Virus record (IMG/VR): IMGVR_UViG_2974732664_000001
Location: 1-64,000 of that record
Source of the DNA: a virus
Lineage: Duplodnaviria; Caudoviricetes
Strand: one strand, 5' to 3'
DNA length: 64,000 bases
Part shown: in pieces, positions 14,219-37,026 of the stretch
Numbering within the stretch: position 1 is the first letter of the stretch
How the letters are laid out: each line of letters opens with the position of its first letter
Program-made: the position numbers and the translations under genes
The notes under the pieces: generated by a model
The model's database searches: none
Seen by the model: only the letters and a program-made list of their open reading frames with translations
Told to the model about the DNA's origin: nothing

Positions 14219-14404
14219 ATGAAAGCAATAATTAAAAATGGAATTGCAAACAAAGATATTCAATCTTGTTTAATATCAGAATGTGGTGTTGAAATAACAT
14301 TTCACAATAATGACTTAGCAGATAAATTTGCTTTGTCATTGAACCTATCTGGTATTCCATGTGTAAACAATGGGAACAAAATAACTATATCTTACATTGA
14401 TTAG
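14219..14404 (+). CDS. Small hypothetical protein (TAG stop)
   Basis: ORF track. Confidence 0.6.
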   Translation: MKAIIKNGIANKDIQSCLISECGVEITFHNNDLADKFALSLNLSGIPCVNNGNKITISYID

Positions 14405-14458
14405 CTGAGTGTAAGCAGCGCGTCTTACATAGCTGAGCACAAGCAGCAAGTCTTGTGT
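14404..14458 (+). ncRNA. Tandem pair of H-type pseudoknots (third copy at 15833-15860)
   Basis: GCTG-A-GTGTAAG-CAGC-GCGT-CTTACAT followed by GCTG-A-GCACAAG-CAGC-AAGT-CTTGTGT; compensatory changes in stem 2. Confidence 0.7.
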
Positions 14459-14751
14459 ATTAGACTTGGAGAGACAGCTAGCAACCTGGAAAGACAGGTA
14501 ATTTATAATATGCTCATTTATAATAGGTGAACGATTGCCAAGTGTGGCAACATTGGCATGATACATATCATTGTCTGTGAAGATAGTGATATGTTTATTT
14601 AAGATAAAAGACATTAAGACTCCATATACATTGATTGCACAATTGAGGTTCTTGCCAAGAGTGGTAAATAGTAGATTTGTTTCGTGTACCATGGTCTGTG
14701 AAGATAGTGGTACATTTTTAATTTAAACTCAGCTAGGGAGAGTCTAACATA

Positions 14752-14806
14752 ATCACTGATGAGACCTAGACGAAACTACACATGTTGCATCATACTGTAG
14801 TCTGAT
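14752..14806 (+). ncRNA. Hammerhead ribozyme (type I)
   Basis: Stem I ATCA/TGAT, core CTGATGA, minimal stem II G-ACCTAGA-C, GAAA, stem III CTACA/TGTAG. GUC cleavage triplet ends at 14802. Confidence 0.75.
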
Positions 14807-14938
14807 ATTCATTATTCATAAGCATTTTATCCCCTAAATACAATGGTCTGTGAAGATAGTTGTATTTAACAGTTATCTCATGCGGTATATAAACCAGGAT
14901 GACGGAGCACCTACGCTAACGTGATAAATCGTAGGTAG

Positions 14939-15030
14939 TAATGTGGCGTTCATGGTCCCAAGCCCATGACTACAACACGTGCTTATGGTACTTGCAAAGC
15001 TATAAGATGTCGGTTATAGGACACAGAGGG
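14939..15030 (+). ncRNA. Twister ribozyme with long P5 and little or no P1
   Basis: TAA-TGTG-GC-GTT-CATGG-TCCCAAGC-CCATG-A-[P5 hairpin]-CACA-GA-GGG. Confidence 0.7.
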
Positions 15031-15133
15031 TGAAATAGTAGTATTACATGTATGCTGAGAGCTAAGGTAGTCAGCCTACTTGCAAGGGGTACAAAAGTGG
15101 TTTTAGTTCTCTAGGACAATCCGGAAAGACGGA

Positions 15134-15256
15134 TAGTGGTTATTATACACTTACTGAAGTAAGAGGGTATACTATGTACGAATTCATTATATGGGTATCG
15201 TACTTGGCTATAAAAGCGCACACATAGCGACGGTTCGAGTCCAGTAGCCACTACAC
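15134..15256 (+). ncRNA. tRNA-like RNA with expanded interior
   Basis: Closing stem TAGTGGTTAT/GTAGCCACTA preceded by a T-loop GG-TTCGAGT-CC. Confidence 0.4.
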
Positions 15257-15366
15257 CTTTATTAAATCATTTTTTAGTTATCAACAGGTTTTATTTCCAT
15301 GCAGGTATATCGGTTCGTGAGGATAGATATACCATTTTTATAGATTAAATCAAAATATATATAGAT

Positions 15367-15657
15367 ATGGAAGATAAGAAACATTCTTTTATGGACCAAT
15401 TGAATCTGTTCTTTATTGGAGCGGTTATTGGTGTCATTGTTGGTGCCTGCTTTGGTATTAATGCTGTAAAAGGTAGCAATAACAGAGCAGAGAAAAAAGT
15501 AAAAGCGTACGAAGAGTATTATAAATGCACTGAGACGCTTTTAGACTCTCTCGATGGAACACATAATCTTGACCTCATGGATACAGATCTTGAGACAGAT
15601 TATGGTGCTGATTATTTGGAAGCTAAGTCTAAAGTAGATGAACTAATTGTAAAGTAG
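15367..15657 (+). CDS. Membrane-anchored hypothetical protein (TAG stop)
   Basis: ORF track; TM segment LFFIGAVIGVIVGACFGI. Confidence 0.75.
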   Translation: MEDKKHSFMDQLNLFFIGAVIGVIVGACFGINAVKGSNNRAEKKVKAYEEYYKCTETLLDSLDGTHNLDLMDTDLETDYGADYLEAKSKVDELIVK

Positions 15658-15763
15658 TATGAATGAATTCGACAAAGAAGAACATACGGAAGATATAACG
15701 AACTACCAATAAATTTATATCTAAAACCAATTTAAAACATAAGGGTTGAGTTGCATCAACCCT

Positions 15764-15828
15764 AAGTGTTTAATGTAGCCAGCGTAAGCTGAGAGTCCAA
15801 AGCCTCTACAAATACAGATGGAACACTT
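15764..15828 (+). ncRNA. Twister ribozyme (type P1)
   Basis: P1 AAGTGTT/AACACTT, U15771-A15772 cleavage site, P2 TGTA/TACA, P3 AGC-GTAA-GCT, P4 AGAG-TCCAAAGC-CTCT, pseudoknot CCA/TGG. Confidence 0.88.
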
Positions 15829-15890
15829 TTTATACCGAGTGTAAGCGGTAAGTCTTACACAAAAATAAACAATGTTTAATTATCAAAATT

Positions 15891-16307
15891 ATGAACATTA
15901 TCGAAAAATTGTTGGGTGAAGCATACCCAAAGCTTGGGTCAGAAGTTTTTGCTGACGGTAACAAAACAGTCGTAACAGTATCTCGTACACTGTCTCCAGA
16001 TCATGTTGATTTGGATGCTCCTAGTTACGTGGAGACTAAGTTCAAGAAACACATTCCAATCTTGAGATCTATTGACGTTGAACTGGACGCCGTAACAGAA
16101 GAACAGACCATTAAGGTGACAGTTGAAGTTGATGGTAAATTCAACAGCATTGATGACTTGAGGCATCTTACATTTATCGCTAGAGGAATTAGCGAAGTCG
16201 CAGAAGACAAGCTCAGTGAGCCTAATATAATTAAGGCCATTGGTCTGTATTGTAAACCATTCATTTGCACAGATGATGAATCAGAAGAAACACAAGCAAA
16301 CGCATAA
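15891..16307 (+). CDS. Hypothetical protein
   Basis: ORF track; TTATCAAAATT-ATG start motif. Confidence 0.8.
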   Translation: MNIIEKLLGEAYPKLGSEVFADGNKTVVTVSRTLSPDHVDLDAPSYVETKFKKHIPILRSIDVELDAVTEEQTIKVTVEVDGKFNSIDDLRHLTFIARGISEVAEDKLSEPNIIKAIGLYCKPFICTDDESEETQANA

Positions 16308-16530
16308 CCAAGCGGTTAAGCCACAGTCAGCAAAAGGGAAGCCTGATGCTGAATACCTTAACTACAAGGTAGTTGCTAAGGAGGGAGGATCTACAATGAT
16401 CCTCTCTTCTGGATTAAGTAAATGTAATGCCAAATCTTTGGAAAATACTTTGAATAGTTATATTAACAACAAACATTCAAATATTCCGGGAGCTGGCAAG
16501 ACAAGTGTTAAATTCATAACGATTCATTAA
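16273..16530 (+). CDS. Hypothetical basic protein
   Basis: Track ORF 16240-16530, first ATG at 16273; TAATG coupling to the next gene. Confidence 0.65.
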   Translation: MMNQKKHKQTHNQAVKPQSAKGKPDAEYLNYKVVAKEGGSTMILSSGLSKCNAKSLENTLNSYINNKHSNIPGAGKTSVKFITIH

Positions 16531-16910
16531 TGAGTGTAAAATTATACGAGAAGCCAGATAAACATAATCCTGGCCCACTGATAGCGATAGTCATAATAAT
16601 AATGTTATTGTTATTGACTTCAAAGTGTCAAGCGCAGCAAAAAGCTGCAATAGACACAATGGTTTGCAAGGTTGAATGTATTAAACAAATAGTACAGAAA
16701 CCTAGTGTTAACGGTAAAACCGTTAAGTATCTAGCTGTATATGTTGATAAGTCAGCAGGATTCTCAGAGATTATTCCAATCTCAAAGAGTGTTGTAGACT
16801 ATATTAGCACATGCAAGCAATTCTCTCTCAAGCCTACACTTGGCATTAGGTTAAGAAATGGTGTAATAACATCTATCGTTCGATACAAAATCAAATTTGT
16901 ACACAAATGA
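16530..16910 (+). CDS. Hypothetical exported protein
   Basis: Hydrophobic N-terminus followed by CQAQQ, a possible signal-peptidase site. Confidence 0.7.
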   Translation: MSVKLYEKPDKHNPGPLIAIVIIIMLLLLTSKCQAQQKAAIDTMVCKVECIKQIVQKPSVNGKTVKYLAVYVDKSAGFSEIIPISKSVVDYISTCKQFSLKPTLGIRLRNGVITSIVRYKIKFVHK

Positions 16911-17365
16911 AGTTTAGTAAAGGAGACGTAGTACGCCGAGTATTGCCTAGTGGCACAATGGTAGGTGGTTTAATGGTCGTAATCAATAACATCGGCGACA
17001 AATGCACAGTTGTTAGAGATGTATCAACTGGAAAATACTATATATATAGGTCAGAACATCTAGGAAAGGAAGGAAAAACAACAAAGATTTTGGTTAGTAA
17101 AAGTGATATGAATAAAATCGACACAACGAAAGGTGTTGGTGCATTCTATCATAGCGTATCACCTGTATATGATAAGCTATATGCTAATCCATCAAGATTT
17201 GTATGTTTTATACTAGCTTACACCAAGGGTGAGACCATACATAGAGTATATCAACTTGGAAAAATATCTAGAGTATTACGAAAAGTTGATGAAATTCGTA
17301 AAGGATACGAAATGGTTCCAGTTAAACAACCAATGTACAAGCTTCAATTAATAGGTGAACTATGA
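16907..17365 (+). CDS. Hypothetical protein (SH3/KOW-like N-terminus)
   Basis: MKFSKGDVVRR...; overlaps the previous stop. Confidence 0.7.
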   Translation: MKFSKGDVVRRVLPSGTMVGGLMVVINNIGDKCTVVRDVSTGKYYIYRSEHLGKEGKTTKILVSKSDMNKIDTTKGVGAFYHSVSPVYDKLYANPSRFVCFILAYTKGETIHRVYQLGKISRVLRKVDEIRKGYEMVPVKQPMYKLQLIGEL

Positions 17366-17553
17366 GTAAAAAACTTAGTCCTGGCAGAATCTACAAAATA
17401 AATGGCATTGTTGTTAGGGCTAAACGTCAATACAATTGCAATGAGTGTATCTTTAACAATCCTTTCTCTTGTCCAAAAGTAAACGATTCAAAAGATTTGA
17501 ACGAAGAATCACCATCATGCATTGAAGACGGAATAATTTTTATTAGTCCTTAA
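17362..17553 (+). CDS. Small Cys-rich protein
   Basis: CNECIF...C...C; ATGA overlap. Confidence 0.65.
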   Translation: MSKKLSPGRIYKINGIVVRAKRQYNCNECIFNNPFSCPKVNDSKDLNEESPSCIEDGIIFISP

Positions 17554-17555
17554 TT

Positions 17556-17828
17556 ATGGCAAAACGTAGAAAAAACGGACAAATGTCTGACGAAGAATTA
17601 GAAGTTAGACGCCATCACTCATCATTGCGTAGACTTAAAGCGCATTGTAGTGATGAAAACGTAGAGTTAAAAGATTATAAATTTGCAAATCCTGATGATA
17701 TGTGTGTATTATCATTAAGTGATGTAGATTTGGGATCAAGAAAGAGTTATTTAACAACAGATAACGATTCATGGTTTGTCAGTGAAGATGACTATGAAGA
17801 GGTATCACAAATAGCATTATACCTATGA
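17556..17828 (+). CDS. Hypothetical protein
   Basis: ORF track; tight operon spacing. Confidence 0.7.
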   Translation: MAKRRKNGQMSDEELEVRRHHSSLRRLKAHCSDENVELKDYKFANPDDMCVLSLSDVDLGSRKSYLTTDNDSWFVSEDDYEEVSQIALYL

Positions 17829-18028
17829 GAAAAGAATATGGAGAGCTATTTGTATCAATAGCATTAATAATTATTTCGGCATTCCCTCTTTTTGACTTAT
17901 TGTCAAACATAACGAATATAACTAACATAAGCGATTTTTCGTTGATAGTAGTAATTGTTATGTTGATAATAGTTTTGATCTCCAGTATTATATATTTTAT
18001 ATCATATTGGACGGAAAAATTTAATTAA
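17825..18028 (+). CDS. Two-TM membrane protein
   Basis: Two hydrophobic stretches; ATGA overlap. Confidence 0.7.
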   Translation: MRKEYGELFVSIALIIISAFPLFDLLSNITNITNISDFSLIVVIVMLIIVLISSIIYFISYWTEKFN

Positions 18029-18262
18029 GTTGCATTTCAAGGGGGCGGTTTATACCGTCCCCGAGATTTATTAGGTTAGAGGCCTACATAACAGTTCAAG
18101 TCTGTATAAAATTACAAATGGGTACCAAACAACTCCCTACAACTCTATTAAATAGCGTAATTACTTTAAAATTAATCATTTGAGTTAGAAAGAAAAAAGA
18201 ACGTTAGATAGTAGGAGACAATGGAATGGTTTAAATATAACCAGTGAAAATTGCCCATATTT

Positions 18263-18336
18263 GGACTTGTAGCTCAGTTGGTTAGAGCAACAGACTCATA
18301 ATCTGGAGGTCCTAGGTTCAAGCCCTAGCTGGTCCA
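18263..18336 (+). tRNA. tRNA with CAU anticodon (Ile2 or elongator Met)
   Basis: GGACTTGTAGCTCAGTTGGTTAGAGCAACAGACT[CAT]AATCTGGAGGTCCTAGGTTCAAGCCCTAGCTGGTCCA. Confidence 0.92.
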
Positions 18337-18407
18337 CAAAAGATGATTCCGTGAATCTTTAAAACCCGGATAGTTAACATTTGTTGAATCTCTAATAAAT
18401 TATCAAA

Positions 18408-18899
18408 ATGAAGAGATTATTCGAAAAGCTTAGCATGTGCTTAATCATGCTTATTGTAGCCGTCACAGTATCGTCATGTGACTACATGAAAAAAACTAAG
18501 AGTGAGATCAGACACGATGACTCGCTCATGGTATCAAAGATGATGCAGGATATTGACAATCCTACATTCACCGGCTGTTCTGACGTTATAGAGTTTCAGA
18601 GATCGGAAGGTCAATGGAGACATCAGGACTCAGTGTTCTTCAGCATACCTGAAAAGGTTATGCGTGATGTGGTATCGGTCTTAGAAAAATCTGGAAAACC
18701 ATTGACTAAGATGAGTATATCGAACGAGTTCGAGATGAACAAGCATGTATATTTGAATCTTCCTGATGAACAGGATCAATACAATGCGATTGCTCCTCCT
18801 GATACCCCTAACGTAGAAATGGTTGATACTATTATCGACGGTAAGCATGTACAGATCGTGCAGTCCTCCAGTACTAACATAACAACAAAGGAGGATTAG
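18408..18899 (+). CDS. Putative lipoprotein (TAG stop)
   Basis: Signal peptide with lipobox VSS-C. Confidence 0.75.
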   Translation: MKRLFEKLSMCLIMLIVAVTVSSCDYMKKTKSEIRHDDSLMVSKMMQDIDNPTFTGCSDVIEFQRSEGQWRHQDSVFFSIPEKVMRDVVSVLEKSGKPLTKMSISNEFEMNKHVYLNLPDEQDQYNAIAPPDTPNVEMVDTIIDGKHVQIVQSSSTNITTKED

Positions 18900-18901
18900 A
18901 T

Positions 18902-19321
18902 ATGAAGCGGTACATTATTATCTCTTACGATGGTTCTAGTTTGGATCCATCTGAAGTTATGGCAATAGCTTCACAACTGAACACAGTTAAACCTGATGTT
19001 AAGGATGTGCATGCAGTTACAATGGATGAAACGGAAGTTAATTCCATTATTATCGGTCACGCAGAAGCCAAGAATGCTACAGAACTTTCTGTTGTAGAGT
19101 CTGCGTGCATCTACGTGAAAAAAAGATTTAGTAAGTTTTTCTACTCCAAGATGAAGCTGTTGCTTGCATTGTCAGAGGCTATAACTAATGAGCCTAACAA
19201 TGAAGCTCTTATGAATGCCATCAGAGTTATGTCTGGTGGTATAAGTAAGAGAATGCGTGATTCTTACGGTATTTCTACCGATATTATTTGTGTATTTAAA
19301 ACGGTTCAAGATAACATGTAA
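18902..19321 (+). CDS. Hypothetical protein
   Basis: ORF track. Confidence 0.75.
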   Translation: MKRYIIISYDGSSLDPSEVMAIASQLNTVKPDVKDVHAVTMDETEVNSIIIGHAEAKNATELSVVESACIYVKKRFSKFFYSKMKLLLALSEAITNEPNNEALMNAIRVMSGGISKRMRDSYGISTDIICVFKTVQDNM

Positions 19322-19323
19322 CT

Positions 19324-19669: not shown

Positions 19670-19705
19670 TTAATTTTATTTACAAACATTTAAAACATTA
19701 TCAAA

Positions 19706-20200: not shown

Positions 20201-20215
20201 TTCTTCTTCTAATAC

Positions 20216-20501
20216 AAGTATCTTAGTATCACGTACATAGATTCTGAAGCACTGTAGAGGATCTTAAGAAGACGAGGCAGCGAAGGAATCTCAGAATGAA
20301 TTAACATTCTCATCAAGTATCTTCGTATCACGATGAGAGGAAGAGATGTGACCCCACACAGTAAATTGGGACAGTAGATCAAACAATATGTTTTGTGCGT
20401 ATCTTTGTATCGGGGAGATTTGATTGCTCTGAAAAGTTAATTGAACCCTGCAAAATGTATCAAAAATGCTGAATATAACCCTCTAAGTATCTTTGTATCA
20501 T
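20216..20501 (+). repeat. Dispersed repeat AAGTATCTTNGTATCA (4 copies; 5th at 27071)
   Basis: Copies at 20216, 20315, 20399 (partial) and 20485. Confidence 0.75.
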
Positions 20502-20666
20502 GAGGATTACTATATATTTTTAGCCATGTTTTAAGCGCTCTGAGGCAGAGTATGTCACCAAGTGGAGTAATTAACCACGAGTGCCGCAAAAATGTCTTAG
20601 AGCGCACCTAAAACAGCTTAAATCGAATGTTCTGACTGATCATCGGAACATTTACAAGAAATGTAC

Positions 20667-20904
20667 AATGTGTATGAAATAATCTGTCTGGACAGGGGTT
20701 CGACTCCCCTCACGTCCACTGGGCATCCTCTACGCTATTGTGTAGATTCCATTTGAACAACCTAGGCATGTTGTAAAACTGCCTACACGGGCGTGTTTGG
20801 TTTTGACAGACAGAGGAGATAAATACATTAAGCACTATACTATAAATTAAACGACAATGTAAATAACATTGTAGACTATACTAACGTAGCGTAAGTTTAG
20901 TCTA
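20667..20904 (+). ncRNA. ssrA: Circularly permuted (two-piece) tmRNA
   Basis: The 3' acceptor half (TCTGTCTG-GAC-AGGGG-TTCGACT-CCCCT-CACGTCC-A, to 20718) precedes the 5' half GGGCGTG-TTTGGTTTTGAC-AGACAGA (from 20789). G3-U70 and A73. Tag frame 20853-20894 reads DNVNNIVDYTNVA*. Confidence 0.85.
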
Positions 20905-20930
20905 GGTGTTTCCTACCAAAGTGGAGAGAA

Positions 20931-20992
20931 GAAGAAGTTGGTTCTTTGGGCTACACACCCGAGGATTAGGGTTCGACTCCCTAGCTTCTTCC
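20931..20992 (+). ncRNA. Mini tRNA-like element (no D arm)
   Basis: GAAGAAGT/GCTTCTTC acceptor; TAGGG-TTCGACT-CCCTA T arm. Confidence 0.65.
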
Positions 20993-21980: not shown

Positions 21981-22538
21981 ATGGAGTATCAGCGTATCAC
22001 TCAATCTGAGATTGAGACCATAAAAGAAGCTCAAAAGGGAAATGAGCTAGCGTTTAATAAATTGTTTAACCGTTACAAAGAGTTCGTTGACAACGTGCTC
22101 TTTTGTTACGTGAATGACATGGATGAAGCTAAAGATCTTACAAATGTTGTATTTATTAAGGTTCACCAAAAACTCTCGACATTCACAGATTATTCGTCTT
22201 TTGGCGGATGGCTGAGAATTATAGCTAATCGAACAGCTATAGATTATCTACGAAAAGTAAAGGAAAAATCCATGGAGTTAGGAGAAGATGCAGGCCGACT
22301 ACCTGTCGAATTAACTAATTCTTCAGAAGAAGAAGATCTTGTCAACCTTCTTGAGTATGAATCTCTTCTAAAGGAGTTTGAAAAGCTCCCAAAGAAGACA
22401 CAGAAGATTTTTAATCTATTTTACGTAGAAGATCTTACCGTTGATGAAATTAGCAAAGTGCTGAAAATTCCTACAGGCACTATAAAAGCTGCACTAAGCC
22501 GCACTCGTAGGAAAATTAAAAATAACTTAAAAGTTTAA
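21981..22538 (+). CDS. ECF-family RNA polymerase sigma factor
   Basis: Region 2: GNELAFNKLFNRY...DEAKDLTNVVF...FGGWLRIIANRTAIDYLRK. Region 4: LPKKTQKIFNL...LTVDEISKVLKIPTGTIKAALSRTR. Confidence 0.92.
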   Translation: MEYQRITQSEIETIKEAQKGNELAFNKLFNRYKEFVDNVLFCYVNDMDEAKDLTNVVFIKVHQKLSTFTDYSSFGGWLRIIANRTAIDYLRKVKEKSMELGEDAGRLPVELTNSSEEEDLVNLLEYESLLKEFEKLPKKTQKIFNLFYVEDLTVDEISKVLKIPTGTIKAALSRTRRKIKNNLKV

Positions 22539-22939: not shown

Positions 22940-23005
22940 ATTTAAGCTAGTTGCCCAGAAAGTATTAATTAATTTTAGTAAATAACATTTAAAAACATTA
23001 TCAAA

Positions 23006-24517: not shown

Positions 24518-24618
24518 TACGGCCAATTAAGAGAACTGGTTCACAACTAGTTGGCCGCATTAAAAGAGCCTTTGACATACAATGGCAAAGTGAACACAAA
24601 TAATTTAACTATCAAAGT

Positions 24619-25020
24619 ATGAAAAAATTAGTGATCACGTTGTTAGGAGCAGCATTCCTTACTATCGGCATGAATATTGCCGATCTTAAGAATGTTCCCC
24701 TTCCAACGACAGTGCAGACAGTAGCAGCATCTACTGTACAGCAACCAATGGACCATTTGTTTGGTCAAGTGAATCGTGCTAATCCTGATACAGTGCATGA
24801 TACCGTTAGGGTAGAAAAGCCTGTACCTTGTAACCATAAACAGTTACCTGCAAAGGTAATTGTTAAACGCACCGTAATTAAGAAGACAGATACGTCGTAT
24901 GTACCACTTCTATATATTATGGAACCTGGAGAAAAGGTCGACTCCACTAATCACAACTCTACCATTCGTAAGGGAGAGCTCAATGATTATATTCAAATCG
25001 CCTCCAATGTGCATAAGTAA
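24619..25020 (+). CDS. Hypothetical exported protein
   Basis: MKKLVITLLGAAFLTIG signal peptide. Confidence 0.75.
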   Translation: MKKLVITLLGAAFLTIGMNIADLKNVPLPTTVQTVAASTVQQPMDHLFGQVNRANPDTVHDTVRVEKPVPCNHKQLPAKVIVKRTVIKKTDTSYVPLLYIMEPGEKVDSTNHNSTIRKGELNDYIQIASNVHK

Positions 25021-25029
25021 ACACAAGAA

Positions 25030-27100
25030 CACTATGCACTATAATTGGGTAAGTACATATGGTAGATCCCATTAGTCTACGTACTATTCTGGAACATCCC
25101 TCGCGAAGGAGCTAGAAGAAAAACTCAATAAATTAAACTTGATCCGAGAATATGTTAACTCTGTCTTGCAGAGCGAGATCACTCAAAAGGTAGGATGAAA
25201 TGTATCAAACATTGAAACAGTTTGATATAGGTAGGAGAAGCGTTGTATCAGCTCCTATAGATTATACAGCTGGACTTGTGAGAACCGTCTGGAGACAAGC
25301 TGGATGAGGCTGTATAATCTAAAAACGCATAAGTCCCAAGAAGGGCATAATGAACCGTATCGTAATTATATGTGATAATACTAAGCATATACAAACGTTA
25401 CACGAGATGAACTATATTGGTCCCCAGTAGGTGAACAGAATTGCATACATGGTATGGTGCATGGTGCTGGAAGAACCGAGGATATCCCAAACAATATAGA
25501 AGTATTATTAAGCCGTAGGTAGTGTTTCTAGTGTCCAAATCTAGTATAAAGGCCGAAAAAATTATCTAAGACGCAATATCGTGAGGATAATACTCACGGG
25601 ACGTATGGTGAATACGTTGGCATATAGTCCTTGACGTTCGATTCGTCACAACTCCATTGAAGGGGTGCCGGGGATGAGGTGTAAGACGTCTGAGCTCATG
25701 GTAGACCGCCAGGCTTTTCTTGTTTATGCGGTATATAAAAGTAAAACAAGCGCAAGGGTTGGGCAGCCCCTTAATCGAAGCTCTACGGGAGTATCGTACG
25801 CGGGTGAAGATCGCGGTGAAAATCTATTCCAGTTGTATTATTAGGATGTTAGGCAATCCGAACTTACAGCCAATTTCCATGAAAATTAAATCGTTCATGA
25901 GACTATGATCGATGACTCCGTTACAGTCAAAGAAAATTGATGGAGAGCTATCCTAGAATAAGAAATAGCAAAGCAGGTAGAAAGTTGATTCGAGATATGT
26001 CCATCCAGGACCATTTGACCTCCACTTTCATCCAAAACGATCTAGACTAATAGTTTATTTGCACCATGATATACAATATTACATAGTCTCTACAGAGTAG
26101 TAAGCTGGTATATTATGTATGCGTATGTTGTATGCAAAAGATATAAATTATGAAAACCTAGAAAGTTTAAAAGATAACATGTTTAACAAAAATTGATGTC
26201 CCTTCATAGAGTTAATCTTACGTTGTAAGTAAGGGCTTGAGGTGAAGAAATCGAGTGCCAACCGATATGCCAACCATGCTAAAGTATACTGCGCAACAGT
26301 ATATGTAAACATAAAGGTTCGAAGCAATACAGGAAATTGATGGGCAGCTTATATCTATGTTGTAAAACGACTGTGTATATTATATGTGTATACTGTCTCT
26401 ATACATGTATATTACGTTATAAGTGGGTGACAAGATGAAATGTATGGGTTGAATTCCCAATATTCGTGCACTATAAATAGGAGGTAGTAATACCGGTACA
26501 GAAAAATTGCAAACATCAGCAAAGATGTAAAAAGCCGTAAAGTCTGTGATGGGTTTGATCCTGAGACATTCCGATAACCAACCGCTGGGTACATGCCATA
26601 AGCCGAGTACCGCAGTAAGGAGCCATTTCGATAAGTTAGGCGCTTTTAAAACTTATTAGCCGAGGAAATCTGCGTTTAATCGACAACCTGTAGGAAGATC
26701 TTGTAAGTATAGTAAGGGAAATACGACCGAGATTCTACATATTTTCGTGGGTTATAGAAAATTCTAAGATTCTATGAGTGTTAGTTGCTATGCAAAATTT
26801 CACCAACGAAAATTAGAATAGTTAAGTTAGAAAAAAACGTGAACAAAATAGCAGAAAACAGTTCAGCATTTGATTATGCAAAGGAAGCATTCAAAGCTTT
26901 AGACGATGGGCCTGGATAAACCAGTAAATGCTAATTGCATCATACGTATGCAATTCCTGCTGCAAGCCTATTATCCTATTGTCGTAATAGAGAAAGTGCA
27001 GCTAAGTCTAGATAAAGCGTCTACAATAGTAGAACTTCCTTTAGAAAACTAAGTACGCAAAGTAGTAACCGAGTATCTTCGTATCAGCGTTGCTTTATTC
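25030..27100 (+). ncRNA. Putative large structured non-coding RNA region (~2.1 kb)
   Basis: No credible ORF. Many helices, e.g. TAGATTATACAGC/GCTGTATAATCTA (25258-25321) and long-range GGATGAAA (25193)/TTTCATCC (26026). Confidence 0.5.
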
Positions 27101-27185
27101 AATAAACAACGGCAAAGGTGTAGCCAAAATACACCATATTTTTCAATCATATCGTTAGTTAATCAATAACGATATCAAAAAGGAT

Positions 27186-27779
27186 ATGATTATGTCAGAA
27201 ATTAATGTAAACATCGTGGAAACAACTATTAAGTCAAATCGTACCCCACTGAGCATGCTCGGTGCAAAAATGTTTGGTCAGGACGTATTTACTCCTCAGA
27301 CCCGTTTATTCAACCCAGACCATGACAAGGTTTTGGAGCAGGCTAAGCAGAGCTCCAATGTAAATCTTGTACTCAATCGTTCGCCTCGTCGCTTCTCGAT
27401 CGGCTATATCACGATTGAGTCCATGGCAACAAAACAGAATGCAATCGGCGATGTCGTTTGCCGTCTTAATGAGGGCACCGACAATCAGATTGATATTCCT
27501 CTCGGTGAGAACAGCACCAAGTTTGGTGAGACCACTGAAGAGGCTGTCCAGAACGCTCTTAAGGACAAGAACTCTAAGGCCGTGTTCTCAGATCCTAAAG
27601 ATTTGAGTGTCATTCTTAATGACCTTAACCGTGGAGAGATTGCTCGTCTTGACGCAATGATCGAACAATTGCAGAAGGCTAAAGCACAGTGTGTGTCTGC
27701 AATTTCAGCAAATGAGAAGATCGTTGCTGACTATGAGCGTCAGAAGACAGAGTCAAAACCAGCTGATAAGATCGCGTAG
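27186..27779 (+). CDS. Hypothetical protein (TAG stop)
   Basis: ORF track. Confidence 0.82.
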   Translation: MIMSEINVNIVETTIKSNRTPLSMLGAKMFGQDVFTPQTRLFNPDHDKVLEQAKQSSNVNLVLNRSPRRFSIGYITIESMATKQNAIGDVVCRLNEGTDNQIDIPLGENSTKFGETTEEAVQNALKDKNSKAVFSDPKDLSVILNDLNRGEIARLDAMIEQLQKAKAQCVSAISANEKIVADYERQKTESKPADKIA

Positions 27780-28369: not shown

Positions 28370-28645
28370 ACAGAAACATTCCTGAGGGAATGGTGTATGA
28401 ACTGCGAGCAGAAGAGTACACATTCATGCATGGTATTATCGTTATTGTTTATAACGAAATGCAAAGACGATATTATTAGTTTATATTAAAAGGCATCCTT
28501 AAACATTCTCTGCGGAGAATAGGTAATCCGCCCTGCGGGGCAGGATTGCCAATGGGTGTCTTTTATTCTTTATTACAGTTATATGTAATATAGGAACTAG
28601 GTAAATGGCTGATTCAAGTAAATTGTTTAATTTTAATCAAACTAT

Positions 28646-29194: not shown

Positions 29195-29202
29195 ATACTA
29201 TA

Positions 29203-29263
29203 GGTTCGAGACAAATATAAGGGTCGCCGAAAGGAGTAAGATCGAGGCTTACACGAACCACAA
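29203..29263 (+). ncRNA. Mini tRNA-like element
   Basis: GGTTCG/CGAACC-A-CAA acceptor; GTAAG-ATCGAGG-CTTAC T arm. Confidence 0.55.
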
Positions 29264-29318
29264 TAAGGAATCCCTTGCCCTAAAAATAACATTATTAACA
29301 CATTAAATTATCAAAATT

Positions 29319-30952: not shown

Positions 30953-30992
30953 GGCGTAACTTCTTCAAAACCGACCAGGACACCACTGGTCA

Positions 30993-31045
30993 CCCTAGTG
31001 TGCTCCGAAAGGATATGACTGCGAGGTGCAAACCCTCACTAGGGA
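30993..31045 (+). ncRNA. Mini tRNA-like element directly before DNA polymerase
   Basis: CCCTAGT/ACTAGGG-A acceptor; GAGG-TGCAAAC-CCTC T-like arm; internal TCC-GAAA-GGA hairpin. Confidence 0.55.
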
Positions 31046-31048
31046 ACT

Positions 31049-32959: not shown

Positions 32960-32980
32960 TCGTTTATCAACGTATATAAG

Positions 32981-33547
32981 ATGATTATTGAACTAAACAC
33001 AAAACTCCTGGACATTCCAGGACTAAATTCAAATCAATTAATATTCCTAAGTTTGGTATTGGATAAGAATCAAAAAACCTATAATCAAGACGTCCGCAAA
33101 ATTGTCAGCCTAGTTAGCGACGAAGAAATATCAAACTTAATTTCTCAGGGACTTATTACCTCGATCGAGAGAGGTAAGTCAATTACATATCATGCAACAG
33201 ATACGCTTAAGGATATAGTTCGACCTAAACAGGACTATTTCGATCTGTTTTATGAAATGTACCCAATATACGTTCTACGACCAGATGGCACCAAAAACTA
33301 TCTGAGAGCCAACGTTAACAAGTGTAGACATTTATTTAATGTTTATGTAGGTCAAAGCGAAGCTATGGCTCAACATCTTATTCAGTGTCTCGACTTCGAA
33401 ATGAAGAAAAAGACTAACGAGGGTAAACTAAGTTATATGAAGACGATGTGGAGATGGCTCGTAGACCATCAATGGGAAGAATCTGAGGAAGAAATGCAAG
33501 ACAACTCTAAAATTGAGGAATCGACTTATGGAACAGAACTTATCTAA
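32981..33547 (+). CDS. Putative replication initiator / helicase-loader-like protein
   Basis: Winged-helix-like N-terminus, FDLFYEMYP and W-rich C-terminus; directly precedes DnaB. Confidence 0.55.
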   Translation: MIIELNTKLLDIPGLNSNQLIFLSLVLDKNQKTYNQDVRKIVSLVSDEEISNLISQGLITSIERGKSITYHATDTLKDIVRPKQDYFDLFYEMYPIYVLRPDGTKNYLRANVNKCRHLFNVYVGQSEAMAQHLIQCLDFEMKKKTNEGKLSYMKTMWRWLVDHQWEESEEEMQDNSKIEESTYGTELI

Positions 33548-34454
33548 TCTTATAAGACCAATGTCAGTTGTAGCCCAAGAGGCAATAAACTACATATCTG
33601 GTCGTAGAGATCACTCTATAACATCTCTAAAGACTAGATGGACTAAGTTTAATAAGCAGTGTATGGGAGGTATTGAACCTAATACCGTTTATACCATAGC
33701 TGGTATTTCAGGAAGTGGTAAGAGCTCATTCGCAAATGAGATCTCAACTGATATTGTTGATTTGAATCCTGGTGAAGAAATAGTAATTCTGATTTTCTCG
33801 TTAGAGATGGTTGGATTTAGGCAAGTTGGAAGAACGCTTTCTAGTAAGCTTAGGAAAACGACTTCGACTTTGTATAGTTCGGAAACGGACCTAGATGACG
33901 ATACCTTCAGAAAAGTCATCTCAGTATCTAATCAACTAAAGGAGTATCCTATATGGTTTGTAGATAACCCTACAACTCCCAAAGAAGCAGAAGATATTAT
34001 TAAGTATTTCTATAATACATACATAAAGGGTACCGATAAACATTTTGTGATAATGTACGACCATGCTCTATTGACGAAGCCGATAGGCAGCGTTATAGAA
34101 ACCATGCAGGAACTCGAAAGAGTTTTCATAAGTGCTAAAAAGTACCCTATGACATCAGTGTTACAACTAGCACAGATGAATAGAAATATTGAATCACCAG
34201 AAAGAATAAACAATTCTTTGTCGCATTATCCTATGAGAAGCGACATTTCATCTGCTGATGCTTTATTTCAAGCTAGCGATTATGTTATAGTTATTCATAG
34301 GCCTGAAATTCTTGGAATACAAGAATACGGCCCGAGCCATTTACCTACTCAGAACAAGGTGTATCTACACATCTTGAAGAATCGAGACGCAGGAAAGCCC
34401 TGCATACTTGAATTCCAGAATGACTTAGCGTATAACAACTTGATAGAAAGTTAA
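33528..34454 (+). CDS. Replicative helicase, DnaB-like (SF4)
   Basis: Walker A AGISGSGKS, FSLEM, LAQMNR, SDISSADALFQASD, ILKNRD. Confidence 0.92.
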   Translation: MEQNLSNLIRPMSVVAQEAINYISGRRDHSITSLKTRWTKFNKQCMGGIEPNTVYTIAGISGSGKSSFANEISTDIVDLNPGEEIVILIFSLEMVGFRQVGRTLSSKLRKTTSTLYSSETDLDDDTFRKVISVSNQLKEYPIWFVDNPTTPKEAEDIIKYFYNTYIKGTDKHFVIMYDHALLTKPIGSVIETMQELERVFISAKKYPMTSVLQLAQMNRNIESPERINNSLSHYPMRSDISSADALFQASDYVIVIHRPEILGIQEYGPSHLPTQNKVYLHILKNRDAGKPCILEFQNDLAYNNLIES

Positions 34455-34477
34455 GCAATTAAAATTTAGGCTGAATT

Positions 34478-34933
34478 ATGACAACATACGATATTAAGTT
34501 TACTGACAACAACATTAAGAACACTAACAATGGTAACATTTATTCTCAGATTCTCGACGATATTATTCTTTCTACTGTAAAGAAGAACAACTCTTATTTG
34601 TTTAACACAAAGAAGGAGGATGACGATCTGATTGATGCCATGTTCGACGAGTTGGATCATACTTATATCTACAAGCCTCTGAAGGGCGACACTTTGTTCG
34701 CAAAGGCTTGTGATATTCTTGCTAACTATGGCAAGAAGAAGAGTATTATGAAGGGTATTAAGTTCGGTAAGATTTACCGTCTTGAGAATGGTCTCCCTGT
34801 CATTTTCTACAATGATGAGATTCAGATTGGTACCGACATTTATAGTTACTCTGATTTTAGTGATTACAACTTCATCTCTTCACTTAGTCCAGAGATTAAG
34901 AAGACAATCATTAATATTAACATTAAGCTTTAA
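34478..34933 (+). CDS. Hypothetical protein
   Basis: ORF track. Confidence 0.8.
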   Translation: MTTYDIKFTDNNIKNTNNGNIYSQILDDIILSTVKKNNSYLFNTKKEDDDLIDAMFDELDHTYIYKPLKGDTLFAKACDILANYGKKKSIMKGIKFGKIYRLENGLPVIFYNDEIQIGTDIYSYSDFSDYNFISSLSPEIKKTIININIKL

Positions 34934-34958
34934 TTAAAACTTTTAGTATCATTGTATC

Positions 34959-35699
34959 ATGAGTTTAACATTACCTACTAGTAAAATTCCTGCAGTTTCT
35001 GAAAATCCTAGATATCTTATACTCTATGGTCTTCCAAAGGCTGGTAAGACATCTTGTCTTGCACAGCTGGATAATAACCTTATCATAGACCTTGAGGGAG
35101 GCTCTGTCTTCGTTGATGCGATGGCCATCCAGTGTCGTACGATCAACGATTTAGGAGAAGCAGCAAGTGCCATTCGTGCCAAGAATAAAGAAGTAGGTCA
35201 TAATTTCTATAAGCATATCACTATCGATAATGCTACACGACTTGAGGATATTTGTATGAGCTATGCTTGTACACTCTATCGACAAACTCCAATGGGTAAG
35301 AAGTGGGACGGCACAGACGTAACCACATTACCTAACGGTGCTGGATATAAGTATCTTAGAGACGCAGTAAAGAAGGTAGTTGATATGTTCCGAGATTTGT
35401 GTGACGAATTTATTCTTGTAGGTCACGTTAAAGACACCGTAACTGAAAAGGATGGTGTTGAAGTTTCTGCAAAAGAGCTCGACTTAGTTGGTAAGCTGAG
35501 TAAAATCGTGTGTGGATTAGCCGATGCGGTTGGTTATGTATATCGCAAAGGAAATGAAACGCATATATCCTTTAAAGGTGGTACATCTGATACCATCATG
35601 GAGGCTCGTGCAAGACACATAGCCGGAAAGGATATCGTTATTGCAGAAGGTAATGAAGATGGGACACTTACAACGCATTGGGATAGAATATTTAAGTAA
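34959..35699 (+). CDS. AAA_24 / Sak4-like ATPase (putative recombinase)
   Basis: YGLPKAGKTS, IDLEGG, ITIDN, ILVGH, ADAVGY. Confidence 0.8.
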   Translation: MSLTLPTSKIPAVSENPRYLILYGLPKAGKTSCLAQLDNNLIIDLEGGSVFVDAMAIQCRTINDLGEAASAIRAKNKEVGHNFYKHITIDNATRLEDICMSYACTLYRQTPMGKKWDGTDVTTLPNGAGYKYLRDAVKKVVDMFRDLCDEFILVGHVKDTVTEKDGVEVSAKELDLVGKLSKIVCGLADAVGYVYRKGNETHISFKGGTSDTIMEARARHIAGKDIVIAEGNEDGTLTTHWDRIFK

Positions 35700-35789
35700 A
35701 TTGATATATCGATCTATTCGATCAGTAGCATACTATGCTGAGAATAAACTTGATATGTTAGCATTACGTATATTAAAATAATAGAGATT

Positions 35790-36395
35790 ATGTTTAGTAC
35801 AAAGACAGCCGCAATTAGCAACGAAGAATTTAGTAATAGTAGTTATATGCCAGTAGGCATCAATCAGAATGTCACTCTTAAAGAGGTAAACTGCAACAAG
35901 TCTCCTCAGGGTCTCGATTTCCTCGAGATCGTATTTGAGAATGAGGATGGTCAGACAGCTACTATGACAGAGTGGAAGAATACAAAGGGAATGTATATTA
36001 AGACAGACGAAGACTTGCAGAAGCGTGATAATGCTAAGTTTGGACGAGTTTGTCAGATTCTTGATTGTTTCTACCCACAGAGACCAGATGCAGAGCTTTC
36101 TACATTCAAGGAGATGATTGACTGGACAAAGCAGATGCTTGACCCTATGATTGCTACCAAGAAAAAGCTCCGTTTGAAGGTTATCTATGACAAGAAGGGC
36201 TATACTCAAGTAAGTAAGCTCGGAATCTTCGTTGAAGACATGTCTAATACAGATTCGCAGATTAAGCTCTTTAAGAACGATCTTATGGAGCGACCAGTTG
36301 TTGCAGATAAGGAGAACAACGATCCGCTTAACATGCCACCAACCGTTACTCCGGAAACTGCGAATGCAGAAGGCGCATCAGATCTTCCCTTTTAA
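35790..36395 (+). CDS. Putative single-stranded DNA-binding protein
   Basis: Follows the Sak4-like gene; flexible tail ending SDLPF. Confidence 0.65.
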   Translation: MFSTKTAAISNEEFSNSSYMPVGINQNVTLKEVNCNKSPQGLDFLEIVFENEDGQTATMTEWKNTKGMYIKTDEDLQKRDNAKFGRVCQILDCFYPQRPDAELSTFKEMIDWTKQMLDPMIATKKKLRLKVIYDKKGYTQVSKLGIFVEDMSNTDSQIKLFKNDLMERPVVADKENNDPLNMPPTVTPETANAEGASDLPF

Positions 36396-36591
36396 GGGGT
36401 TTACGCCTGAAGAAATAAAAATACTACTTGATTGTATGAAATCCGGTAAATGGTTCTTATACTGTTTACATAGCAGGAGTGCCAAACTATACAACAAGTG
36501 GATACACCCCAGGGAGGTAATACTGCCATGAAAGGGTGTTGGTGGAGCTAGGTAATTCAGTTACCCTTTGGAGGTGAAATGCCTCCAATAA

Positions 36592-36717
36592 GGCTCGCAG
36601 GGTGTCGTGAGACACAAGCATGGACGTATGCGAAAACAGATCCAAATCGACGTTTTAATCATGTTTTGTTATATAGACAAAAAGTCCAGTAGGGTTCGAA
36701 TCCCTACAAAGCCACAA
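36592..36717 (+). ncRNA. tRNA-like element with expanded interior
   Basis: GTAGGG-TTCGAAT-CCCTAC T arm; GGCT/AGCC-A-CAA end. Confidence 0.5.
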
Positions 36718-36947
36718 CATTTCTGATGATAAGAAGAGCTACAGCTTGTGAAAGTAATAGCTCTGTCCGCCTGTGAAGGCCGATATTATCTATGATGCAC
36801 AGTTTACCTGGCATCAGATTTCATACGCGTGTACGCTACGTAAGTGCGGGTTTGAATAACCTAAAGTCCGAGCTTAGCATCTCCGTAAACTGCTATACGT
36901 CCGTCAACGTAGACCTGAGCATGTCATTAAACTGCTCATTTTTATAA

Positions 36948-37012
36948 GGGCGTGATGAAGGAAAGATCTAATATAGAAATATATAGCCACAGTTCGAGGC
37001 TGTGGGCGCCCA
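36948..37012 (+). ncRNA. Mini tRNA-like element directly before primase
   Basis: GGGCGT/GCGCCC-A acceptor; CACAG-TTCGAGG-CTGTG T arm. Confidence 0.6.
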
Positions 37013-37026
37013 CTAACTTATAAATT

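Follow-up and report, generated by a model that had tools for sequence, protein, structure and literature searches.

Ribozymes, a two-piece tmRNA and tRNA-like minihelices at gene-module borders in the early block of a Burzaovirus genome

The early/replication block of the phage genome analysed here may be transcribed as polycistronic RNAs, with elements that act at the RNA level marking the borders of the modules, a reading to which we give about an even chance. The window, a stretch of 64,000 nucleotides, is a Crassvirales genome of the genus Burzaovirus (97.7% identity to cr124_1). Its late genes read TAG as a sense codon, while in the early genes TAG serves as a normal stop. Ribozymes, a two-piece tmRNA, a tRNA, minihelices and conserved small RNA folds were found at the borders of early-block gene modules (Table 1). 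The ribozymes, tRNA, tmRNA and minihelices are all encoded on the gene strand, and each shows conservation or covariation in relatives. Modules bordered by RNA elements span 1 to 8 genes, and most genes of the block are tightly packed with no RNA element in between. A preliminary description had placed RNA elements in most of the larger gaps; several mid-sized gaps (22940-23005, 24518-24618, 29195-29318 and 30953-31048) hold only a conserved hairpin or are empty.

Table 1. Positions of RNA elements and related features in the window
Feature	Position	Strand	Evidence	Setting
GC-rich hairpin and T-run, terminator of preceding gene	14107-14148	+	fold, sequence, mir-like hairpin alignment	start of early block
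Two tandem 27-nt H-type pseudoknots	14404-14458	+	geometry scan, variants in relatives
GNRA hairpin 1, apex UGUCUGUGAAGAUAG	14563-14594	+		followed by T-run
GNRA hairpin 2	14685-14714	+	covarying lower stems, conserved apex	hammerhead starts 12 nt downstream
RAGATH-1 type hammerhead ribozyme	14726-14807	+	Rfam RF03152, syntenic matches in relatives
GNRA hairpin 3	14836-14867	+		in 137-nt piece between hammerhead and twister-2 cuts
Hairpin CCUACG/CGUAGG, loop CUAACGUGAUAAAU	14910-14935	+	conserved	abuts twister 2
Twister 2, no P1, two-part P5 insert of ~50 nt	14939-15030	+	hand-drawn fold, covariation
Conserved 118-nt RNA closed by AGUGGUUA/UA(A/G)CCACU, candidate tRNA-like	15135-15252	+
GNRA hairpin 4, apex GGUUCGUGAGGAUAG, and T-run	15304-15333	+		upstream of ORF 15367
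Twister 1 (P1 type)	15767-15825	+	RF03160, conservation, pairing
Pseudoknot copy 3	15834-15860	+		8 nt past twister 1, 30 nt upstream of ORF 15891
Strong canonical intrinsic terminator	18041-18062	+		after ORF 17825-18028
tRNA-Met, CAU anticodon, no encoded CCA	18263-18337	+	annotated in cr124_1
Four hairpins 82-99 nt apart, loop AAGUAUCUUNGUAUCAC each	20217-20500	+		fifth at 27072-27086
Permuted two-piece tmRNA	20659-20894	+	Rfam, ARAGORN, annotated in cr124_1
Minihelix A	20928-20992	+		between tmRNA tag and next start codon, ends 9 nt before ATG 21001
ORF-free region of 2.1 kb with bare T-arm	25021-27185	+	near-identity among relatives
Bare T-arm (with 3' acceptor strand 25632-25655, no 5' partner)	25632-25648	+		in ORF-free region
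Conserved structured intergenic RNA	28370-28645	+	79 consensus pairs, 7 compensatory, 0.6% unpaired cells
Bare T-arm UAGGG-UUCGAAU-CCCUA plus CAAAGCC-A	36690-36714	+
GCAU..UAAACUGC family hairpin, then T-run	36916-36938	+		directly before minihelix B
Minihelix B	36948-37012	+	recurrence in relatives, pairing	ends 15 nt before primase ATG at 37027

Ribozymes in the first operon leader

The first operon has three ribozymes in its leader, all within 1.1 kb. The hammerhead scored 68.6 bits against RF03152, above the gathering score of 56.3. Its loop-loop pairing (CUAGG/CCUAG) is intact, and syntenic matches were found in 9 of the 17 relatives scanned. By the family rule applied to the alignment, cleavage is predicted after C14802, leaving a new 5'-OH at U14803.

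Both twisters fell below Rfam gathering scores, though they are conserved in about 25 relatives. Twister 1 reached 52.6 bits with RF03160 (E 3e-9; gathering score 67.2) and is kept in 26/28 related loci, 99.7% paired and with all core nucleotides present. Its predicted cleavage site is U15771/A15772, and its T1 pseudoknot is CCA/UGG in place of CCC/GGG. For twister 2 the E values were only 0.1-1.5, because the 50-nt P5 insert breaks the model. The hand-drawn fold was 96.4% paired across 23 sequences, compared with 25-53% in slid controls, and 15/29 pairs were changed on both sides, which was reached by 0/500 shuffles; cleavage is predicted at U14939/A14940. Compensatory changes in the twisters were found in P2, P4, P5 and all three T1 pseudoknot pairs, the T1 variants GUCCC/GAGGG, GUUCC/GAGGA, GUCAC/GAGUG and GUCCA/GAUGG compensating at each of the three positions. 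The stem of the hairpin abutting twister 2 also covaries (UCUACG/CGUAGA); it is missing in two relatives (L018 and L024), where the twister is retained.

The one hammerhead and two twisters of the preliminary description were thereby confirmed, and its cut sites at 14803, 14940 and 15772 were recovered by family rules on the alignments. Self-cleavage at the three sites can be safely predicted from sequence, since every catalytic-core element is kept, all three ribozymes lie on the gene strand and they are covarying or conserved. Contigs from RNA runs bridge the ribozyme sites with flat cover, and such contigs carry no RNA-end information.

tRNA, tmRNA and tRNA-like minihelices

The true tRNA claimed earlier is the tRNA-Met of Table 1. 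A tRNA-Lys comes and goes beside it among relatives. The phage's own tRNAs are without encoded CCA, as are the minihelices. The permuted tmRNA was also upheld, Rfam and ARAGORN agreeing on its domain structure: an acceptor piece up to 20719, an intervening segment (20720-20788) and a coding piece from G20789. It has a G3-U70 pair, discriminator A73 and the tag DNVNNIVDYTNVA, which is kept in 27/35 relatives. Being in two pieces, it would by family definition need RNase P and 3' trimming. That it rescues ribosomes on truncated or amber-stalled messages, as had been suggested, is speculation; intergenic cuts would spare the stop codons of messages.

About seven tRNA-like elements had been proposed, of which two are well supported and three further candidates are weaker. 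Minihelix A has a 7-bp acceptor, a T-arm (UAGGG-UUCGACU-CCCUA) and a variable middle. Among relatives its T-stem comes in five variants and its acceptor in three to four, with sizes of 34-68 nt, and the distance to the ATG is always 7-10 nt. Minihelix B has the acceptor GGGCGU/GCGCCC, the T-arm CACAG-UUCGAGG-CUGUG and discriminator A. Of 74 distinct relatives, 49 have a perfect T-arm in the -70 to -20 interval before the primase, whereas primase coding sequence gave 6 over 66.5 kb; the acceptor stem was paired 7/7 in 71%, compared with 7.7% when strands were shuffled. The bodies of minihelix B are unrelated among relatives, even with primases 99% identical, while acceptor and T-arm remain intact. 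Acceptor/T-arm minihelices suffice as substrates for bacterial RNase P. A and B sit at a fixed distance ahead of a start codon (9 nt for A, 15 nt for B), which is the look expected of a punctuation signal. The conserved 118-nt RNA carries an invariant GGUUCGAGUCC T-loop-like motif. A 5' acceptor strand for the T-arm at 36690-36714 was looked for and not found.

Pseudoknots, hairpins and terminators

The geometry scan returned three plus-strand copies of the pseudoknot, starting at 14404, 14432 and 15834, against about 0.15 in shuffles; these covary, and the repeated family described before thus stands. The layout is S1 of 4 bp, loop A, S2 of 7 bp and linker RNGU, and the 5 S1 and 6 S2 variants of relatives are all paired. 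The tandem pair lies directly behind the stop codon of ORF 14219-14404. Protection of RNA ends by the pseudoknots is speculation. The hairpin families claimed previously were found to be three, with conserved loops. In the AAGUAUCUUNGUAUCAC hairpins the closing stems covary (CUCAUC/GAUGAG vs CCUAUC/GAUAGG), and other GCAU..UAAACUGC hairpins lie at 20763-20785 and 36874-36896. For the pseudoknots and the hairpins with conserved loops, the most likely, though putative, role is in protein binding or stability.

The statement that canonical terminators are few was roughly right, except that a strong one (18041-18062) lies within the block and T-runs trail all four GNRA hairpins. That terminator and the T-runs suggest several separate transcription units as opposed to a few long ones. 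The 2.1-kb ORF-free region is 95-100% identical among 29 relatives, bar three variable cassettes.

A possible route of transcript cutting and its alternatives

The early-block elements fit cutting of the transcripts by the RNA itself together with host tRNA-processing enzymes. The plus-strand block would give polycistronic RNAs, which would be cut at the three predicted ribozyme sites. The hammerhead and twister 2 cuts would release the 137-nt piece, which would have a 5'-OH at one end and a 2',3'-cyclic phosphate at the other; a ~400-nt non-coding RNA beginning with twister 2 would also be set free. The mRNA of the 15891-18028 operon would carry a 5'-OH and be headed by the twister-1 body and a pseudoknot. 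Host RNase P and RNase Z type enzymes (acting on CCA-less precursors) would cut the tRNA, both tmRNA pieces and the minihelices, freeing the tmRNA coding piece and trimming the leaders of downstream mRNAs to a very short length. The end products would be small stable RNAs and operon-sized mRNAs. The earlier proposal of cut early transcripts keeps self-cleavage at three sites, tmRNA processing and the punctuation look of the minihelices; gene-sized mRNAs do not hold, as the elements flank modules of 1 to 8 genes, and the block is divided by at least one strong intrinsic terminator. The search of the early block for phage proteins gave no RNA ligase, kinase, RNase or SmpB, nor any RNA-repair enzyme.

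It is possible, if on balance unlikely, that there is no coordinated system. The ribozymes would then be a self-contained non-coding RNA island of a kind known around hammerheads and twisters in phages, the tRNA-like pieces would be tRNA genes undergoing decay or recombination at tRNA hotspots, and the T-run hairpins would be ordinary terminators, all sharing gaps since non-coding DNA fits there. The RAGATH name itself stems from the clustering of hammerheads and twisters with unexplained RNAs, and an RF03152 match is present here. The hammerhead module is also dispensable, because a wastewater strain is without 14710-14861, which is this module between two GNRA hairpins. Terminator-like sites occur at three times the shuffled expectation. 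The pre-primase site is a tRNA-gene hotspot in other Crassvirales and holds real tRNAs (Leu, Gln, Lys, Val) in many relatives, so the minihelices are possibly leftovers of tRNA turnover; tRNA-Lys varies beside tRNA-Met as well. However, random decay would not remove the anticodon domain from dozens of sequences that are unrelated to one another and yet spare acceptor/T-arm pairing, nor would it fix the distance to the start codon. Moreover, the hammerhead follows a GNRA hairpin by 8-20 nt in all relatives, so this hairpin cannot terminate transcription efficiently.

We consider it rather improbable that small RNAs are the purpose, the early leader being a factory of decoy or sponge RNAs released by ribozymes and tRNA-like ends and acting against host defence or host RNA-binding proteins. 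Candidates would be the type III antitoxin-like pseudoknots, the four GUAUC-N-GUAUC hairpins, the 137-nt piece, which host RtcB might circularise, and the ~400-nt RNA behind twister 2. The elements do lie in the first early region, their conserved loops and varying stems are typical of protein-binding sites, the pseudoknot pair is in tandem with a 28-nt period, and early non-coding RNAs of phage phi14:2 are very abundant and persistent (10.1101/2020.03.07.982082). Against this, the pseudoknots occur in one or two copies per site only, no partner protein, ToxN-like or otherwise, was detected (Pfam and PHROG gave no match for the ORF that follows the third pseudoknot) and no target was identified.

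It is very improbable that some of the elements act as DNA (GTATC motifs as iterons, the 2.1-kb region as an origin, bare T-arms as attP-like copies of host tRNA 3' ends): the 2.1-kb region does sit among replication genes with conservation above that of the flanking proteins, and two T-arms have no 5' acceptor strand, but every element is on the transcribed strand, the block showed no integrase, and GTATC-loop closing stems and minihelix stems covary, which indicates selection on single-strand pairing.

Relation to known systems

The ribozymes share catalytic cores, pseudoknots and cleavage-site geometry with the RAGATH-1 hammerhead (RF03152) and twister (RF03160, clan CL00120) families. They resemble RAGATH-1/twister clusters in phage-like DNA, where same-strand ribozymes neighbour each other beside unexplained small RNA motifs; here the setting is defined as the first early operon leader of a Crassvirales genus, in about 25 relatives. 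Twister 2 differs from known twisters by its missing P1 and large P5 insert, and both twisters by their sub-threshold scores.

Two-piece tmRNAs (RF04321) occur in alphaproteobacteria, some cyanobacteria and betaproteobacteria. The phage tmRNA has the same order of acceptor piece, intervening segment and coding piece, as well as G3-U70, T-arm, P2 pairing and a resume codon with tag frame. It differs in being phage-encoded, in a tag ending in NVA not LAA, in that CCA is not encoded and in the minihelix after the tag frame.

Early long non-coding RNAs are abundant in the crAss-like phage phi14:2, whose early 5' ends are without a promoter motif (10.1101/2020.03.07.982082). The likeness is one of position, both genomes having extended stretches without ORFs close to where the early region begins, highly transcribed in phi14:2; ribozymes or tRNA-like elements were not reported there (10.1101/2020.03.07.982082). 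In recoded gut phages, the 3' trailers of tRNAs are processed by theta ribozymes, a minimal HDV-like class (PMC10879173), and here too self-cleaving RNA lies near tRNA-type genes in a TAG-recoded gut phage. Theta ribozymes sit directly 3' of tRNAs, whereas those found here belong to other classes and lie in an mRNA/non-coding RNA leader, not adjacent to tRNAs; the Rfam search detected no theta-type ribozyme in the window.

In mitochondrial tRNA punctuation and in MALAT1 mascRNA, ends are made at tRNA-like structures by RNase P and RNase Z. Plant mitochondrial t-elements are tRNA-like structures at mRNA borders (PMC1920247). The minihelices share with all three the placement of non-decoding tRNA-like structures at mRNA borders; they differ in belonging to a bacterial virus, in having only the acceptor/T-arm half, with cuts that are predicted, and in bodies that are swapped between near-identical genomes.

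Genome and coding frame

The region 14000-37100 was 97.7% identical by megablast to uncultured phage cr124_1 (NC_055899), of the lineage Crassvirales, Suoliviridae, Burzaovirus faecalis, and the full record is a complete genome of 103.8 kb with terminal repeats. The minus-strand late genes gave shattered frames under table 11, and reading TAG as Gln produced late frames of 5443, 1948, 812 and 705 codons; a suppressor tRNA with a CUA anticodon was found. In-frame TAG is absent from the plus-strand block at about 14150-41150, which encodes an ECF sigma factor, DNA polymerase, a helicase, a RecA-like protein and primase, and in these early genes TAG is an ordinary stop. A tRNA-like element called by neither ARAGORN nor Rfam lies on the strand of the suppressor tRNA, about 320 nt upstream of it; its T-arm is GCAGG-UUCGACU-CCUGC, and its acceptor stem, AGUCUAU/AUAGACU, pairs 7/7.

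Pfam and PHROG searches with 20 early proteins returned a single match, the ECF-type sigma factor (Sigma70_r2 and r4, E 1e-12) inside the standard-code block, and nothing RNA-related; no RNA ligase, kinase, RNase or SmpB was found among them. The sigma factor points to a class of phage-directed promoters for later genes. ORFs 14219-14404 and 15891-16307 had no Pfam match, and the latter no PHROG match either. A TTATCAAA-like word is found 3-12 nt 5' of the ATG of first genes after gaps (starts 14219, 15891, 18408, 23006, 24619, 27186, 28646 and 29319), and could serve as a translation-initiation signal, or a promoter-proximal one, in hosts of a group without Shine-Dalgarno pairing.

Features of the early block and related elements elsewhere in the window
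Feature	Position	Strand	Basis
CUA-anticodon suppressor tRNA	9123-9194	minus	tRNA search and Rfam
tRNA-like element upstream of suppressor tRNA	9510-9582	minus	T-arm and acceptor stem
27-nt pseudoknots (first nucleotide)	14404, 14432, 15834		copies of one fold
GNRA hairpins 1-4	14563-14594, 14685-14714, 14836-14867, 15304-15333		common apex
Hammerhead	14726-14807		Rfam RF03152
14-nt repeat ATGCGGTATATAAA	14880-14893, 25726-25739		exact match
Twister 2	14939-15030		covariation
Conserved RNA	15135-15252		closing stem
Twister 1	15767-15825		twister-P1 model
Strong terminator	18041-18062
tRNA-Met	18263-18336		Rfam
Two-piece tmRNA	20659-20894		Rfam RF04321, ARAGORN
Minihelix A	20928-20992		acceptor stem and T-arm
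ECF-type sigma factor	21981-22538		Pfam/PHROGs
ORF-free 2.1-kb region	25021-27185		conservation
Variable cassettes of the 2.1-kb region	25050-25150, 25550-25700, 26600-26700
Bare T-arms	25632-25655, 36690-36714		T-arm, 3' acceptor strand
Gap with consensus fold	28370-28645		compensatory pairs
Minihelix B	36948-37012		acceptor stem and T-arm
Pre-primase palindrome	37011-37029		one mismatch

Ribozymes of the first early leader

With the curated Rfam gathering thresholds, four matches were obtained in the window: a hammerhead, a permuted tmRNA, tRNA-Met and the suppressor tRNA. The hammerhead (RAGATH-1) scored 68.6 bits against a threshold of 56.3 and aligned to model positions 1-77 of 77. RAGATH-1 is recognised by a core CUGAUGA...GAAA, a GUC triplet and a 5' hairpin loop that pairs with the loop of a shortened stem II. 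We found the core (CUGAUGAG and CGAAAC), the cleavage triplet GUC at 14800-14802, and CUAGG (14733-14737) complementary to CCUAG in loop II. Related loci were collected via the ORF at 15891 (n=28, protein identity 64-97%), and 9 of the 17 loci scanned had a syntenic hammerhead above threshold. In one wastewater contig, 14709 is joined to 14862, an exact loss of the hammerhead module between two GNRA hairpins; the module seems to be dispensable in some strains, and these repeated hairpins seem to serve as recombination points.

Twister 1 scored 52.6 bits with the twister-P1 model (E 3e-9 over 28.5 kb), below the Rfam gathering score of 67.2 bits. All its parts are present (P1, the U-A cleavage step, P2, the P4 loop GUCCNAAGCC, and pseudoknots T1 and T2), and in T1 a C-to-A change is matched by G to U. 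Among relatives the core is invariant, with 99.7% of cells paired and one compensatory pair in P4, while the periphery has a P3 hairpin in some and a P5 insert in others; the P4-loop word was found in 26/28 loci.

Twister 2 gave only 21.8 bits with the twister-P5 model (at 14901-14967; gathering score 37.6, E 0.1-1.5), because it lacks P1 and carries a two-part P5 insert of about 50 nt that the P5-type model cannot span. Its layout follows the P1-type order, with the P5 insert between P4 and the 3' strand of P2, and it keeps the conserved UAA, GC, GUCCCAAGCC and GAGGG. Among the loci reaching far enough upstream, 23 contained the P4-loop word. When a hand-drawn fold was applied to 23 sequences, 96.4% was paired and 15/29 pairs were changed on both sides (one in P2, three in P4, two in T1 and nine in P5). 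None of 500 shuffles reached the observed value, and slid folds were 25-53% paired. The T1 variants were GUCCC/GAGGG, GUUCC/GAGGA and GUCAC/GAGUG in twister 2 orthologues and GUCCA/GAUGG in twister 1; pooled over both twisters, compensation was seen at all three positions, which is the clearest evidence for twister 2. No P1 helix was found around the twister 2 cleavage site, the flanks after GAGGG varying among relatives and remaining unpaired with the 5' side; engineered twisters tolerate loss of P1.

Hammerheads and twisters are proven self-cleavers. Family rules place the predicted cuts after C14802 and at U14939/A14940 and U15771/A15772, exactly the positions proposed earlier, and judging from the sequence, RNA self-cleavage at these sites is very probable.

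tRNA top halves after the tmRNA and before primase

The two-piece tmRNA scored 66.4 bits against a gathering threshold of 47. Rfam and ARAGORN agree on its domains: the T-arm and 3' acceptor strand CACGUCC-A (20694-20719), a 69-nt intervening segment, and the 5' strand GGGCGUG from 20789. The two separated acceptor strands pair with each other (with G3-U70), a P2 pairing is present, and the resume codon is followed by a tag frame encoding DNVNNIVDYTNVA, kept with conservative changes in 27/35 relatives. This tmRNA is already annotated in cr124_1. Maturation of two-piece tmRNAs requires processing, and SmpB is assumed to be supplied by the host. Upstream of the tmRNA we found four hairpins with 17-nt loops reading AAGUAUCUUNGUAUCAC; as their closing stems covary, they are RNA hairpins and not promoter boxes. 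A Bacteroides -7 promoter box (TAnnTTTG) was dismissed as an explanation of the AGTATCTTNGTATCA motif, since the flanking stems covary and there is no -33 TTTG.

Minihelix A begins 34 nt past the tag stop codon and consists of a 7-bp acceptor stem on a canonical T-arm. Its middle part is different or deleted among relatives (total size 34-68 nt), with five T-stem and three to four acceptor variants, and 7-10 nt always separate its 3' end from the next ATG. Elsewhere in the early block, a tRNA-Lys(UUU) is found beside tRNA-Met in related loci L015, L018, L023, L024 and L026-L028 (at about 6500-7100), on a side that flips between genomes. It is absent from the window, where no significant trace of a remnant was detected.

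The 3' end of minihelix B lies 15 nt before the primase ATG. We compared 80 related loci with primase identities of 67-99%. A perfect T-arm was present at -70 to -20 in 49 of the 74 distinct upstream sequences, against 6 in 66.5 kb of primase coding sequence. A first acceptor criterion (6 of 7 pairs, G-U allowed, within 130 nt) was uninformative, being passed by about 78% by chance and by 4 of 6 control T-arms; for the minihelices we adopted 7/7 pairs with shuffled-strand controls. The 7-bp acceptor was fully paired in 71% of the T-arm loci, compared with 7.7% when 3' strands were shuffled. The size of the bodies varies from minihelices of 42 nt to that of a tRNA or more; ARAGORN calls some of them as real tRNAs (Val, Leu, Lys, Trp, Thr and Pro), and even where primases are 99% identical the bodies are unrelated. 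At the level of sequence, such a pattern speaks for selection acting on the tRNA top half at that position, together with rapid exchange of cassettes.

Most pre-primase elements are followed by A-C and then by a conserved palindrome, (A)ACUUAUAAGU(U), adjoining the ATG. As DNA this reads (A)ACTTATAAGT(T), or GCTTATAAGC in more distant relatives, and it is found immediately 5' of the primase ATG across Crassvirales (at about 1485-1503 in related loci L065-L144); the window copy reads AACTTATAAATT. It looks like an operator or translational control site.

Both minihelices have the architecture of t-elements, an acceptor on a canonical T-arm with no working anticodon arm. The two bare T-arms retain the 3' acceptor strand and discriminator A and have no 5' partner.

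Proposed processing of early transcripts

The validated elements all lie on the gene strand and at gene-module borders, and we give transcript cutting at these borders an even chance. The preliminary description had proposed that a few long early transcripts are cut into gene-sized mRNAs by self-cleavage and host RNase P/Z, with ribosome rescue by the phage tmRNA. The modules between elements hold 1, 1, 8, 5, 6, 2, 1, 2, 6 and 7 genes, which would give products of operon size instead. The scarcity of terminators is roughly right; a strong one divides the block, which points to several transcription units in place of a few long ones. Intergenic cuts would create no need for the tmRNA because stop codons stay intact. 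In four wastewater runs labelled RNA-Seq, the contigs showed flat depth over all 20 kb and bridged the ribozyme sites; these contigs are most likely virion DNA.

Ribozyme-assisted tRNA maturation is described in recoded gut phages (PMC10879173), and early non-coding RNAs are abundant in the crAss-like phage phi14:2, whose early 5' ends carry no promoter motif (10.1101/2020.03.07.982082). Neither the phage tRNAs nor the minihelices encode CCA, which suggests one 3' processing route for both. Recognition of the minihelices by RNase P/Z would be a serious possibility, one we lean slightly against. The main rival explanation, unrelated elements combined with turnover of tRNA genes, we consider rather unlikely. 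We are similarly doubtful of a broader minihelix-punctuation reading for Crassvirales. Here interchangeable tRNA top-half minihelices would act with ribozymes as punctuation cassettes. Early and replication mRNAs, the primase mRNA among them, would owe their 5' ends to host RNase P, RNase Z and self-cleavage, which would also release small RNAs. If true, minihelix punctuation in a bacterial virus would parallel the tRNA punctuation of mitochondria and would account for the lack of promoter motifs at early crAss 5' ends. Should the minihelices serve as processing signals, a regulatory layer is being missed by annotation pipelines in which they are discarded as tRNA pseudogenes.

Crassvirales are the most abundant human gut phages and, to our knowledge, almost nothing is known of how their early transcripts are made and matured. 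No paper that we found deals with ribozymes or tRNA-like elements of the early region in crAss phages. The hammerhead, twisters, tRNA and tmRNA are members of known families. As far as literature searches show, several features are new: three ribozymes keep a conserved place in the first early leader of a Crassvirales genus, one of the twisters has no P1 and carries a P5 insert, and neither the 27-nt pseudoknot nor the hairpin families with conserved loops had been described. Foremost among the new features are the tRNA top-half elements that precede primase and follow the tmRNA, fixed in position and variable in body. The defined, conserved site of the three ribozymes, all of known classes, makes their long-unexplained biological role testable, and over a wide span of Crassvirales a tRNA-like minihelix keeps a constant distance to the primase start codon. 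For RNA engineering in Bacteroidales, the locus also supplies compact natural parts: the twister that lacks P1, and minihelices 34 to 42 nt long.

Other conserved elements of the early block

In the 27-nt H-type pseudoknot, stem 1 measures 4 bp, loop A one nucleotide and stem 2 7 bp, and the linker is RNGU. Its three copies compare with about 0.15 expected, and the five stem-1 and six stem-2 sequence variants of relatives are all paired. No arrangement of the type III antitoxin kind (ToxI-like) was found, with at most two copies per site and no Pfam match to a ToxN, CptN or TenpN-type endoribonuclease in the neighbouring ORFs 14219-14404 and 15891-16307. The apex of the four GNRA hairpins reads GGUCUGUGAAGAUAG or, in a covarying form, GGUUCGUGAGGAUAG; their lower stems covary freely, and they occur nowhere in the whole genome outside 14563-15333. 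T-runs lie 3' of them. A role as efficient terminators was dropped: the hammerhead starts 8-20 nt after GNRA hairpin 2 in every relative, so this hairpin is not an efficient terminator. The conserved RNA at 15135-15252 has an 8-bp closing stem and an invariant GGUUCGAGUCC; we do not class it as tRNA-like, its T-stem being without canonical pairing. Rfam at permissive thresholds, over 14100-15900 and 24950-27250, returned no family for the pseudoknots, the hairpins, this RNA or the 2.1-kb region; matches to the Bacteroides-1 and Prevotella-2 RNAs were weak, with a GUGA-capped hairpin alone aligned.

In the gaps 22940-23005, 24518-24618, 29195-29318 and 30953-31048 we found at most conserved hairpins, with no covariation. 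The consensus fold at 28370-28645 has 79 pairs, 7 of them compensatory. The 2.1-kb region is 95-100% identical in 29 relatives except in its three cassettes, and is more conserved than the flanking proteins; the cassette bearing the T-arm is replaced in wastewater strains. A gene in another code was rejected, as no long frame appears with TAG, TGA or TAA as sense, and the region is a candidate large non-coding RNA or origin. The exact 14-nt repeat occurs only at its two sites in the 104-kb genome, one before twister 2 and one within the 2.1-kb region, in unrelated flanks.
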